A stretch of DNA of 64,000 bases. Origin: Escherichia coli. Its GTDB lineage: Bacteria; Pseudomonadota; Gammaproteobacteria; Enterobacterales; Enterobacteriaceae. The stretch lies in NCBI RefSeq assembly GCF_046105845.1, contig NZ_CP151004.1; one strand, written 5' to 3'. This document shows, one piece after another, positions 12,784 through 21,293 of this stretch. Numbering within the stretch: the first letter of the stretch is position 1; every line of letters begins with the position of its first letter. Position numbers and translations under genes: made by a program. Under the pieces are notes generated by a model. The model was not told the DNA's origin. It saw nothing but the letters and a program-made list of their open reading frames with translations, and did not search any database.

Positions 12784-12859
12784 TGGTGGGTCGTGCAGGA
12801 TTCGAACCTGCGACCAATTGATTAAAAGTCAACTGCTCTACCAACTGAGCTAACGACCC
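12784..12859 (-). tRNA. lysV: tRNA-Lys (anticodon UUU)
   Basis: Reverse complement matches canonical E. coli tRNA-Lys including CCA end. Confidence 0.95.
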
Positions 12860-12863
12860 GAAG

Positions 12864-12939
12864 TGGTGGGTGATGACGGGATCGAACCGCCGACCCCCTC
12901 CTTGTAAGGGAGGTGCTCTCCCAGCTGAGCTAATCACCC
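12864..12939 (-). tRNA. valY: tRNA-Val (anticodon UAC)
   Basis: Reverse complement matches canonical E. coli tRNA-Val(UAC) including CCA end. Confidence 0.95.
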
Positions 12940-12985
12940 ACTTCGGTACTTCACATTTTTACAAGAAATTTAGCTGGTGAGAAAG

Positions 12986-13061
12986 TGGTGGGTGATGACG
13001 GGATCGAACCGCCGACCCCCTCCTTGTAAGGGAGGTGCTCTCCCAGCTGAGCTAATCACCC
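12986..13061 (-). tRNA. valX: tRNA-Val (anticodon UAC)
   Basis: Second identical tRNA-Val copy, 46-bp spacer. Confidence 0.95.
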
Positions 13062-13105
13062 ACTTCTCAATTTCTTGCTACACGGCGGAGACTACATAAA
13101 GTAGT

Positions 13106-13181
13106 TGGTGGGTGATGACGGGATCGAACCGCCGACCCCCTCCTTGTAAGGGAGGTGCTCTCCCAGCTGAGCTAATCACCC
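13106..13181 (-). tRNA. valU: tRNA-Val (anticodon UAC)
   Basis: Third identical tRNA-Val copy; first gene of the operon. Confidence 0.95.
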
Positions 13182-15879: not shown

Positions 15880-15955
<76 letters not shown>

Positions 15956-15994
15956 AATTTTGCACCCAGCAAATTTGGTACGTAAACGCATCGT

Positions 15995-16070
<76 letters not shown>

Positions 16071-16277: not shown

Positions 16278-18467
16278 ATGTTTGTGGAGCATAACCTGAT
16301 AAAAAATATCAAGATATTCACACTAGCGTTTACGCTCACCGTGGTACTTATTCAGCTATCCCGTTTTATTTCGCCACTTGCCATTATCCATTCCAGTTAT
16401 ATCTTTCTGGCGTGGATGCCACTGTGCGTAATGCTGTCAATCTTGTTTATCTTTGGCTGGCGCGGTGTCGTTCCCGTTTTATGCGGGATGTTTTGCACCA
16501 ATCTGTGGAACTTTCATCTCTCTTTTTTACAGACCGCGGTCATGCTCGGCAGCCAGACGTTTGTGGTGTTGTGTGCCTGCGCAATATTACGCTGGCAGCT
16601 GGGGACGCGTTGGCGTTATGGATTGACCAGCCGATATGTCTGGCAACGTCTTTTCTGGCTTGGTTTGGTGACGCCGATCGGCATCAAATGCAGCATGTAT
16701 CTTGTGGGGAGCTTTTTTGATTTCCCGCTAAAGATATCCACCTTTTTCGGCGATGCGGATGCCATTTTCACAGTCGTTGATTTACTAAGCCTTTTCACCG
16801 CTGTGCTGATTTACAACATGCTTTTCTACTATCTCACTCGCATGATTGTAAGTCCCCACTTTGCGCAGATATTGTGGTGCAGGGATATCGCTCCGTCGTT
16901 GGGCAAAGAGAAACGCGCATTTACCTTAAGCTGGCTGGCAGCGTTAAGCGTGCTGCTACTTCTGCTGTGCACACCGTATGAAAATGACTTTATTGCCGGT
17001 TACCTGGTGCCCGTTTTCTTCATTATCTTTACCCTCGGGGTCGGTAAGCTCCGCTATCCGTTTTTAAATCTCACCTGGGCTGTTTCAACGCTTTGCCTTC
17101 TGAATTACAACCAGAACTTTTTGCAAGGGGTGGAAACCGAATATTCGCTGGCATTTATTCTCGCGGTGCTGATTTCCTTTAGCGTTTGCCTGCTCTATAT
17201 GGTGCGCATTTATCATCGCAGTGAATGGCTTAATCGCCGCTGGCATTTGCAGGCGCTGACCGATCCGTTAACGCTCCTACCCAACTTTCGTGCGTTAGAA
17301 CAAGCGCCGGAGCAAGAGGCGGGCAAGAGTTTTTGCTGCCTGCGCATTGATAATCTTGAGTTTATGAGTCGTCATTACGGCTTAATGATGCGCGTTCACT
17401 GTATCCGATCAATTTACCGTACGCTGCTGCCGTTGATGCAGGAAAACGAAAAGTTGTATCAATTGCCGGGTAGTGAACTGCTGTTAGTGCTGAGCGGGCC
17501 GGAAACGGAAGGGCGACTCCAGCATATGGTTAACATCCTGAATAGTCGGCAAATTCACTGGAACAATACCGGGCTGGATATGGGCTATGGTGCTGCCTGG
17601 GGGCGTTTTGATGGAAATCAGGAAACCCTGCAACCCTTGTTGGGGCAGTTAAGCTGGCTGGCGGAGCAATCCTGCGCACATCATCATGTGCTGGCGCTGG
17701 ATAGCAGAGAGGAGATGGTTTCCGGGCAGACCACTAAACAGGTGCTATTGCTGAATACCATTCGTACGGCGTTAGATCAGGGTGATTTGCTGCTCTACGC
17801 CCAGCCAATTCGCAACAAAGAGGGTGAAGGTTATGATGAGATCCTCGCGCGACTGAAATATGACGGCGGCATTATGACCCCGGATAAGTTTCTGCCCCTT
17901 ATTGCTCAGTTTAACCTTAGCGCGCGTTTTGATTTGCAAGTGCTGGAATCCTTGTTGAAGTGGCTGGCAACACACCCTTGCGACAAAAAAGGTCCGCGCT
18001 TTTCAGTCAATTTAATGCCGCTCACGCTGCTGCAAAAGAATATTGCCGGGCGGATTATTCGTCTGTTTAAGCGTTATCACATCTCCCCGCAGGCGGTCAT
18101 TCTTGAGATCACCGAGGAGCAGGCGTTTTCTAACGCAGAAAGCAGCATGTACAACATCGAGCAACTGCATAAGTTTGGCTTCCGGATTGCGATTGATGAC
18201 TTTGGCACCGGCTATGCCAACTACGAACGGTTAAAGCGTTTGCAGGCTGATATCATCAAAATTGATGGTGTCTTTGTGAAAGATATCGTCACGAATACGC
18301 TGGATGCGATGATTGTGAGATCAATTACCGATCTGGCGAAAGCGAAGTCATTGAGTGTGGTCGCGGAGTTTGTCGAGACGCAACAGCAGCAGGCGCTATT
18401 GCATAAGCTCGGGGTGCAATATCTGCAAGGGTATTTGATTGGTCGCCCGCAGCCATTAGCTGATTAA
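16278..18467 (+). CDS. pdeA: Membrane-anchored c-di-GMP phosphodiesterase (MASE1 membrane domain, degenerate GGDEF, EAL); start taken at MFVEHNL
   Basis: N-terminal polytopic membrane region; C-terminal EAL-domain motifs (EITE..., DDFGTGYAN); position as K-12 yfeA. Confidence 0.8.
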   Translation: MFVEHNLIKNIKIFTLAFTLTVVLIQLSRFISPLAIIHSSYIFLAWMPLCVMLSILFIFGWRGVVPVLCGMFCTNLWNFHLSFLQTAVMLGSQTFVVLCACAILRWQLGTRWRYGLTSRYVWQRLFWLGLVTPIGIKCSMYLVGSFFDFPLKISTFFGDADAIFTVVDLLSLFTAVLIYNMLFYYLTRMIVSPHFAQILWCRDIAPSLGKEKRAFTLSWLAALSVLLLLLCTPYENDFIAGYLVPVFFIIFTLGVGKLRYPFLNLTWAVSTLCLLNYNQNFLQGVETEYSLAFILAVLISFSVCLLYMVRIYHRSEWLNRRWHLQALTDPLTLLPNFRALEQAPEQEAGKSFCCLRIDNLEFMSRHYGLMMRVHCIRSIYRTLLPLMQENEKLYQLPGSELLLVLSGPETEGRLQHMVNILNSRQIHWNNTGLDMGYGAAWGRFDGNQETLQPLLGQLSWLAEQSCAHHHVLALDSREEMVSGQTTKQVLLLNTIRTALDQGDLLLYAQPIRNKEGEGYDEILARLKYDGGIMTPDKFLPLIAQFNLSARFDLQVLESLLKWLATHPCDKKGPRFSVNLMPLTLLQKNIAGRIIRLFKRYHISPQAVILEITEEQAFSNAESSMYNIEQLHKFGFRIAIDDFGTGYANYERLKRLQADIIKIDGVFVKDIVTNTLDAMIVRSITDLAKAKSLSVVAEFVETQQQQALLHKLGVQYLQGYLIGRPQPLAD

Positions 18468-18474
18468 CAGGCGT

Positions 18475-18506
18475 AAAAAAGCCGGGGAATGATCCCCGGC
18501 TTTTTT
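18475..18506. terminator. Bidirectional rho-independent terminator between yfeA/pdeA and nupC
   Basis: Hairpin gccgggg-aatgat-ccccggc flanked by A-run and T-run. Confidence 0.75.
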
Positions 18507-18516
18507 ATGTATGGTT

Positions 18517-19719
18517 TTACAGCACCAGTGCTGCGATTGACGCAGACAGCACACTCACCAGGGTAGAGCCGTAAACCAGTTTCAGACCGAAGCGAGAAAC
18601 CACGTTACCTTGCTCTTCATTCAGGCCTTTAACCGCACCAGCGATAATCCCGATAGAAGAGAAGTTAGCGAAGGAAACCAGGAACACAGAGATGATGCCT
18701 TCAGCACGCGGAGAGAGCGTGGAAGCAATTTTCTGCAGATCCATCATCGCAACGAACTCGTTGGAAACCAGTTTGGTCGCCATGATACTGCCCACTTGCA
18801 GTGCTTCACTGGAAGGAACACCCATCACCCATGCAATCGGATAGAAGATGTAGCCCAGGATGCCCTGGAAGGAGATGCTGTAGCCAAACCAGCCAGTCAC
18901 GGTGGCAAACAGTGCGTTCAGCGCGGCGATCAGGGCGATAAAGCCGATCAGCATCGCGGCAACGATAATGGCAACTTTGAAACCTGCCAGAATGTATTCA
19001 CCCAGCATTTCGAAGAAGCTCTGACCTTCGTGCAGGTTGGACATCTGGATGTTTTCTTCACTGGCATCAACACGGTAAGGGTTGATCAGCGACAGCACGA
19101 TAAAGGTGCTGAACATGTTCAGTACCAGCGCCGCAACGACGTATTTCGGTTCCAGCATGGTCATGTATGCACCAACGATGGACATCGACACGGTGGACAT
19201 CGCCGTGGCAGCCATGGTGTACATGCGATTGCGGGAGATTTTGCCGAGGATATCTTTATAGGCAATAAAGTTTTCAGACTGACCCAGAATCAGGGAGCTG
19301 ACGGCGTTAAAGGATTCCAGTTTGCCCATACCGTTGACTTTGGAGAGCAGGAAACCAATTGCGCGGATAATTACCGGCAACACGCGAATGTGCTGGAGAA
19401 TACCGATCAGTGCAGAGATAAAGACGATTGGGCACAGCACTTTCAGGAAGAAGAATGCCAGGCCTTGATCATTCATGCTACCAAAGACGAAGTTAGTCCC
19501 TTCGTTGGCAAATCCGAGCAGTTTTTCGAACATTTCGGAGAAGCCTTTCACGAAGCCTAAACCAACGTCGGAGTTCAGGAAGAACCACGCCAGTAACACT
19601 TCGATAACAAGCAGTTGAATAACATAACGGATACGAATTTTTTTGCGGTCGCTGCTTACCAGCAGTGCGAGAATCGCAACAACGGCAAGTGCCAGTACAA
19701 AATGAAGGACGCGGTCCAT
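18517..19719 (-). CDS. nupC: Nucleoside:H+ symporter NupC (start taken at [14 protein letters not shown])
   Basis: Polytopic membrane ORF recognised as concentrative nucleoside transporter. Confidence 0.9.
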
Positions 19720-19984
19720 ATTTGCTCCAAATATGAGGCAGGTTAAATTTCCGTGCACATTCTATGTAACATGGTTAAGGAAAACGAGATCTGACACACA
19801 CTATAATGACGTCCTGTGACCAGCTTCAAAAATAGTGAGCTGTCATACATTTCTGCTATGTTGTGTATGGAAGCTGAAAGTTATGTAAATGTGCTAACAT
19901 TAAACATAACCATAACATTCAAGTCATCAATCTTTTCGTAGTCATAATCCTGGTCTATCAGAGAAATCACCACAACCCATTTAA

Positions 19985-20005
19985 ATGAATTTGATAATCA
20001 TTCTC
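19985..20005 (+). promoter_or_regulatory. Fur box-like site in the mntH promoter
   Basis: tgaatttgataatcattctcg resembles the GATAATGATAATCATTATC Fur consensus. Confidence 0.55.
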
Positions 20006-20020
20006 GTTTGGCATAGCATG

Positions 20021-20042
20021 AAACATAGCAAAGGCTATGTTT
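20021..20042 (+). promoter_or_regulatory. MntR operator palindrome in the mntH promoter
   Basis: Perfect inverted repeat AAACATAGC-AAAG-GCTATGTTT 13 nt upstream of the mntH start. Confidence 0.7.
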
Positions 20043-20045
20043 TAG

Positions 20046-21293
<1,248 letters not shown>

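Follow-up and report, generated by a model that had tools for sequence, protein, structure and literature searches.

The short region upstream of mntH in Escherichia coli raises the question of what its sequence is there for: binding of metal-sensing repressors to DNA, formation of a structure in the mRNA, or coding for a small protein. We analysed a 64,000-nt stretch of the E. coli contig NZ_CP151004.1 (assembly GCF_046105845.1), hereafter the window, in which the 58-bp interval in question occupies positions 19985-20042. The original prediction, made from the letters alone, had placed a Fur box-like AT-rich site and a perfect MntR palindrome within 70 bp of the mntH start, had considered them consistent with dual Fe/Mn metalloregulation and had called the finding not novel. 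The interval is very probably the core mntH promoter, in which the Fur and MntR operators are interleaved with RNA-polymerase contact elements. The earlier description was correct but incomplete, as it omitted the putative OxyR element, the interleaving with the -35 and -10 hexamers, the annotated small ORF YpeD, the upstream transcription start sites (TSSs) and the published claim of an RNA terminator. What is reported below on sequence, position, conservation and family resemblance was observed in the present analysis.

The mntH locus

The regulated gene is mntH (20055-21293, plus strand), which codes for an NRAMP-type Mn2+/H+ importer according to the RefSeq annotation and NCBIfam NF001923, the product of the ORF scoring 622.6 bits against a family cut-off of 430. 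The gene nupC is divergent from it (nupC <- -> mntH), with pdeA located further out past nupC, and ypeC and yfeO past mntH. The Shine-Dalgarno sequence AGAGG (20044-20048, plus strand) lies 6 nt 5' of the mntH ATG, and its GAGG is nearly invariant across species. The 501 bp around the operators were found, at an identity of at least 95%, in 5424 of 5426 complete E. coli genomes, with the annotation nupC / mntH; strain 13E0767 showed 100% identity to the window over 19700-20200.

E. coli K-12 has the identical order of nupC, intergenic region, mntH and ypeC, and its mntH promoter is the same over 19925-20074 apart from one base, 19976, which falls outside the boxes. Comparison with the characterised mntH promoter, proposed earlier as a check, hence concerns one and the same locus, for which the same regulators are named in the literature. 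K-12 differs in having IS186 beyond nupC (IS186C, inserted at the pdeA/nupC junction beside nupC), an element missing from the window, which represents a non-K-12 strain; at the promoter, nothing of substance differs.

Several features of the surroundings may be recorded in their own right. The genes pdeA (stop at 18467) and nupC (stop at 18517) are convergent, and their junction (18468-18516) contains a perfect hairpin AAAGCCGGGGAATGATCCCCGGCTTT at 18478-18503, which is likely a bidirectional terminator. Two tRNA clusters were located, one on the minus strand at 12784-13181, with Lys(ttt)-Val(tac) x3, and one on the plus strand at 15880-16070, with two copies of Ala(ggc). The nupC-mntH intergenic segment 19815-19905 is moderately conserved and contains CRP-like half-site pairs, TGTGACCAGCTTCAAA at 19815-19830 (9/10) and TGTAAATGTGCTAACA at 19884-19899 (8/10); close to them, a promoter-like site was seen on the nupC strand (TTGAAG, 19829-19824; TATAGT, 19805-19800). 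Together, the CRP-like matches and this promoter-like site probably reflect CRP/CytR control of nupC.

Two repressor operators upstream of mntH

The MntR operator, assigned to neither strand, was identified at 20021-20042 by its sequence, its conservation and the motif of the MntR regulon. It is an inverted repeat AAACATAGC-AAAG-GCTATGTTT, the arms of which (20021-20029 and 20034-20042, on both sides of AAAG at 20030-20033) are exact reverse complements in a 9-4-9 arrangement, so that the palindrome is indeed perfect; it ends 12 nt upstream of the mntH ATG (20055). The core ATAGC-N4-GCTAT (ATAGC at 20025-20029, GCTAT at 20034-20038) is continued by A/T-rich outer arms. With up to 3 mismatches allowed, the pattern matched this single place in the 64-kb window, where 0.03 matches were expected. 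Perfect inverted repeats with 9-nt arms were present at 8 loci of the window, the MntR palindrome being the only AT-rich one at a promoter, and the others mostly G+C-rich, terminator-like hairpins, e.g. that at 18478-18503. A full-text search of the literature for the operator arm AAACATAGC returned unrelated primer matches only.

Similar sites were found at other promoters of the regulon in K-12. The rybA/mntS start has an MntR-like AGATATAGCACAGGCTATATTA matching at 14 of 18 positions, and the region upstream of mntP has two such sequences, AGACATAGCTTAGGCTATATTA and GAATTTAGCCAAAGCTATGTTT, with 15/18 each, the background maximum being 13/18 per 600 nt. All of them contain ATAGC-N4-GCTAT or a close variant, and the E. 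coli operators at rybA/mntS and mntP (Waters et al. 2011) share with mntH this core and the A/T-rich flanking arms; the mntH site is, however, the only perfect 9+9 palindrome (18/18), as compared with 14-15/18 at the other two promoters. A further difference is that the mntP sites are placed far upstream and, according to the literature, serve activation rather than repression. The occurrence of the common core at the mntS and mntP promoters independently supports the assignment of the putative MntR operator of mntH. In the K-12 sequences used, the site at the rybA/mntS transcription start has coordinates 1555-1576 (locus L084), and the mntP pair 966-987 and 1006-1027 (locus L085), 40 bp apart and some 380-420 nt upstream of mntP.

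The Fur box, also assigned to neither strand, is the 19-mer GAATTTGATAATCATTCTC at 19987-20005, supported by its match to the consensus, by conservation and by a published Fur cluster. It starts at -68 from the mntH ATG, which places both sites, as had been stated, no more than 70 bp from the gene. Fifteen of its 19 positions agree with the consensus GATAATGATAATCATTATC, and in the 7-1-7 representation the core TGATAATCATTCTCG at 19992-20006 (TGATAATCATTCTC over 19992-20005) matches at 12 of 14; the sequence proposed for Fe2+ repression within the site is TGATAATCATT. When the consensus was searched with up to 3 mismatches, the window gave no match, the 19-mer having 4. Matches of 15/19 occur twice in the window, as compared with a shuffle mean of 0.26 and at least one such match in 19 of 100 shuffles, and matches of 12/14 to the 7-1-7 pattern also occur twice, with 0.25 expected. 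By itself, the Fur pattern is only about 4-8 times over chance, which is moderate, and we take the box as real because of its position, its conservation and the literature. Chen et al. (2007) described a two-site Fur cluster of 19.9 bits at -56 from mntH, which corresponds to about 19999 of the window. The Fur-like site named in the original prediction can accordingly be retained, with a weaker pattern than that of its MntR neighbour.

Overlap of the operators with the predicted core promoter elements

A sigma-70 scan of the mntH strand predicted a -35 hexamer TTGATA (19991-19996, plus strand) and a -10 hexamer TAGCAT (20014-20019, plus strand), separated by a 17-nt spacer and matching at 9 of 12 positions, with a predicted +1 at about 20025-20027, which corresponds to about 2512734-2512736 in K-12 (NC_000913.3). 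The predicted -35 is situated wholly inside the Fur box, and the MntR repeat begins 1 nt past the predicted -10 and spans the predicted +1 to about +17. TTGATA is invariant in all 80 aligned sequences (see below). The -10 appears in these 80 sequences as TAGCAT, TAACAT, TAATAT, TAGCTT or TAGTTT, and since T1, A2 and T6 are invariant while the middle three positions vary, it bears the signature of a -10 element. The exact positions of -35, -10 and +1 are, nonetheless, to be read as predicted ones.

The genome-wide TSS table of Kim et al. (2012) lists only starts at -147 and -186 for mntH, and no proximal start near 20026; the promoter may have been repressed in the cultures concerned. The supplements of Ettwiller (2016) contain no coordinates in this region, and a search of the literature on the E. 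coli mntH promoter yielded no +1. The two upstream starts, both weak and on the mntH (plus) strand, were placed on the window via the 51-nt sequences in the supplement of Kim et al. (2012). They map to 19869 (-186; U00096.2 position 2510914, 11 reads, 186-nt UTR) and 19908 (-147; U00096.2 position 2510875, 5 reads, 147-nt UTR), and an extended -10-like TGcTAACAT at 19892-19900 precedes the latter. Because of these starts, some transcripts carry both operators as RNA within long 5' UTRs. It should be noted that a TSS assigned to nupC in the same supplement (13 reads, 348-nt UTR) maps to window position 20067 on the minus strand, in mntH codon 5, and runs in the direction of nupC, crossing the MntR and Fur boxes in antisense orientation.

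A candidate OxyR site (19944-19980, no strand) can be inferred immediately upstream of the predicted -35. Four ATAG/CTAT elements with 10-bp spacing, located next to the -35, are what an OxyR site is expected to show. The motif ATAGnTnnnAnCTAT-N7-ATAGnTnnnAnCTAT scored 13/20 at this place, the best in the intergenic region, though tied with 10 other places in the window. Inside the candidate lies a conserved block CTATCAGAGAAATCA (about 19955-19970), and alignment columns 19954-19969 reach an identity of 0.9-1.0 in 81 species. An OxyR site in the mntH promoter is mentioned in the literature, where repression of mntH by Fur and MntR and its induction by OxyR, through separate sites, are together cited to Patzer & Hantke (2001), Kehres et al. 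(2000/2002) and Anjem et al. (2009). The conserved block within 19944-19980 is probably this OxyR site, with a score that is not distinctive.

Cross-species and intraspecific footprint

For the alignment, the mntH upstream regions from 80 other Enterobacteriaceae species were combined with that of the window (81 sequences). The Fur core had a mean column identity of 0.978 (0.949 for the 19-mer), the MntR box one of 0.976 and the -10 one of 0.926; for comparison, the value was 0.69-0.72 in the sequence farther upstream, 0.83 for the spacer and the Shine-Dalgarno region, and 0.88 over the initial 30 nt of the mntH coding sequence. No other upstream sequence is as conserved in these 81 species as the Fur and MntR boxes. 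TTGATAA and ATT of the Fur box were invariant in 80 sequences, and the 18-nt MntR core AAACATAGCAAAGGCTAT in 79 of the 80 aligned sequences. The perfect palindrome was found in only 21 of the 81 sequences, from Escherichia, Salmonella, Citrobacter and Kluyvera; sequences from outside those four genera have GCTATATTT or GCTATATCT as their right arm.

Within E. coli, 3334 genomes were identical over the 58-bp interval and 853 genomes belonged to the class with 90-95% identity. Two strains sampled from this class, G749 and AH21E028, have changes at 20006, 20010, 20011 and 20013. In the sampled alleles both boxes and both hexamers are unchanged and polymorphism is confined to the spacer 20006-20013; in one strain ATTATC replaces ATTCTC, toward the Fur consensus. 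As a separate observation, E. coli populations have GTTTGGCA or ATTTAACG in the 8 bp that separate the Fur core from the -10 (20006-20013), and this spacer is 1 nt shorter in most other genera, which results in a -35/-10 spacing of 16 nt rather than 17.

Possible action of the palindrome in RNA

The palindrome could be selected as RNA instead of as DNA. Shi, Zhao & Kong (JBC 2014, PMID 24596096) are cited as having proposed that the palindrome in the Salmonella mntH 5' UTR is a Mn2+-responsive Rho-independent terminator, and reviews cite the residual Mn repression in an mntR mutant alongside this Mn2+-sensing riboswitch. Transferred to the window, the proposal would be that transcripts started upstream fold into a AAACAUAGC-AAAG-GCUAUGUUUU hairpin followed by a U-run, which acts as a Mn2+-responsive intrinsic terminator or riboswitch. 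We regard this as unlikely, and it could form an extra layer beside the binding of MntR, not a replacement for it. In the Salmonella element, GCUAUG reportedly pairs alternately with duplicated CAUAGC. The same nucleotides, GCUAUG and duplicated CAUAGC with a U-run after them, are what the RNA-level interpretation of PMID 24596096 and the operator in the window have in common.

Three observations in the window speak for such a structure: the TSSs at -147 and -186, from which the palindrome is transcribed in some mRNAs, the presence of CATAGC in two copies (20012-20017 and 20024-20029), and a predicted 11-bp hairpin with a minimum free energy of -17.5 kcal/mol (z = -2.3). The first CATAGC copy, however, is conserved because it coincides with the -10 hexamer, and a transcript begun at the predicted proximal +1 (about 20026) would contain only part of the left arm. 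Across 76 distinct sequences, none of the 9 pairs covaries; on the contrary, 57 of the 76 have an uncompensated C.A mismatch in place of the C-G pair 20024/20039, and another two of the outer pairs are lost in 13 and 4 sequences, which leaves only a 5-bp AUAGC/GCUAU stem in most genera. The terminator search made no call within 19600-20200, and the search of Rfam gave no family match, the best E-value being 0.88, for a snoRNA. In view of these three results (no terminator call, no covariation, no Rfam match), the palindrome was not assigned to terminators or riboswitches. The terminator proposed for Salmonella mntH is itself unrelated to the yybP-ykoY class of Mn riboswitches, and has neither an Rfam match nor covariation in the present data. 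Taken together, the comparative data favour selection on the DNA sequence, i.e. on half-sites contacted by protein, over RNA pairing, and a lineage-specific RNA effect of the palindrome may exist.

An elaboration of the same idea, which we rate as distinctly improbable, links several layers in the minority of long transcripts, those that start at -147 or -186: Fur and MntR would act as roadblocks instead of occluding the promoter, the palindrome hairpin would abut the mntH Shine-Dalgarno sequence, and translation of YpeD as an upstream ORF could open the hairpin and couple to mntH translation. If true, a second layer of Mn/Fe control would operate after initiation, confined to the genera in which the palindrome is perfect (Escherichia, Salmonella, Citrobacter and Kluyvera).

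Small ORF overlapping the operators

Selection on a protein was the next possibility. YpeD, a 29-aa protein annotated in RefSeq (19985-20074, plus strand; b4819 in K-12), is encoded by an ORF that spans the Fur box, the -35, the -10, the MntR box, the Shine-Dalgarno sequence and 20 nt of mntH, and one may suppose that the interval is conserved for the sake of a functional YpeD, the operator boxes being secondary. Apart from the annotation in K-12 and in many RefSeq genomes, this would agree with Ribo-RET/Ribo-Api signals that supported both initiation and termination, and with homologues in Salmonella and Citrobacter that the authors took as hinting at a function (Stringer et al., bioRxiv 10.1101/2021.07.02.450978), as well as with the presence of the ATG at 19985 in 72 of 81 species. 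The ORF behind this start codon, however, is 29 aa long in only 12 of the 81 species, 11 aa in 40 and 23-25 aa in 22; it is reduced to 8 aa in three Escherichia lineages, and all three values of its frame relative to mntH occur among the 81 species. In the E. coli variant allele (G749 and AH21E028, sampled from the 853-genome class) codon 9 is a stop (TAA). Invariance is restricted to the stretches LIII and KHSKGY, which are simply what the Fur core and the MntR box give when translated, and variation is located in the spacer and not at third codon positions. Moreover, as the ATG is about 40 nt upstream of the predicted +1, only the weak upstream transcripts can encode YpeD. Because the ORF itself is conserved neither in length nor in frame, YpeD was rejected as a conserved protein, its apparent conservation is read as a by-product of the operators, and we consider it highly unlikely that the protein is what maintains the interval. 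It can be added that identical RefSeq sequences are annotated variously, with YpeD, with an 18-aa 'hypothetical protein' from the ATG at 20018, or with nothing.

Finally, that a palindrome and an AT-rich match stand side by side merely by chance and without function deserves almost no credence, for although a 15/19 Fur match arises in about 19% of shuffled 64-kb windows, the palindrome is expected only 0.03 times in the window, the motif recurs at other MntR-regulon promoters, the genetics has been published, and the near-invariance of both elements over 81 species, amid variable flanks, effectively refutes a palindrome devoid of function.

Control of mntH and likeness to known systems

With the interval read as the core mntH promoter under Fur and MntR, we return to its regulation. 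Repression of mntH by these two proteins is taken from the literature, where independent action of Fe-Fur and Mn-MntR at separate sites is attributed to Patzer & Hantke (2001, J Bacteriol 183:4806, PMID 11466284). An mntH-lacZ fusion was published as de-repressed in fur mutants, and a PmntH-egfp reporter as silent in iron-replete LB at any Mn level. This silence is as expected if Fur alone shuts the promoter. To judge from secondary citations, the operator coordinates given here are presumably those of the sites footprinted or mutated in the 2001 work of Patzer and Hantke.

The steric mechanism that we infer from the arrangement of the sites is the following. When iron is sufficient, Fe2+-Fur on the Fur box (19987-20006), over the -35 TTGATA, would exclude RNA polymerase. 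When manganese is sufficient, Mn2+-MntR, a dimer of the DtxR family, bound to 20021-20042, would block open-complex formation or promoter escape. Because either repressor alone suffices, synthesis of MntH would be limited to a shortage of both metals or to activation by OxyR. Under H2O2 stress, oxidised OxyR would activate the promoter, probably from 19944-19980 just upstream of the -35.

The same logic of three regulators, OxyR, Fur and MntR, is ascribed to the mntH and sitABCD promoters of Salmonella Typhimurium (Kehres et al. 2002; Ikeda et al. 2005). Salmonella arizonae and diarizonae have both TTGATAATCATTATC and an MntR palindrome identical to that of the window, with unchanged spacing, whereas the Salmonella Fur half-site is the perfect ATTATC in place of ATTCTC and the spacer sequence is different.

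The dual Fe/Mn metalloregulation suggested by the original prediction is borne out by the published repression, by the footprint in 81 species and by the motif at mntS and mntP. Its remark that nothing here was novel was justified too, given the attribution of dual Fe-Fur/Mn-MntR repression to Patzer & Hantke (2001): an mntH promoter with Fur and MntR operators is already known, ordinary and strongly conserved. The mntH region represents a textbook case of a single promoter that integrates two metal sensors. Both ypeD and the proposed Salmonella riboswitch draw on these very nucleotides, and the Fur and MntR operators together with the core promoter account in full for the apparent conservation of ypeD and of the RNA hairpin, which calls for caution when claims of function for either are derived from conservation.
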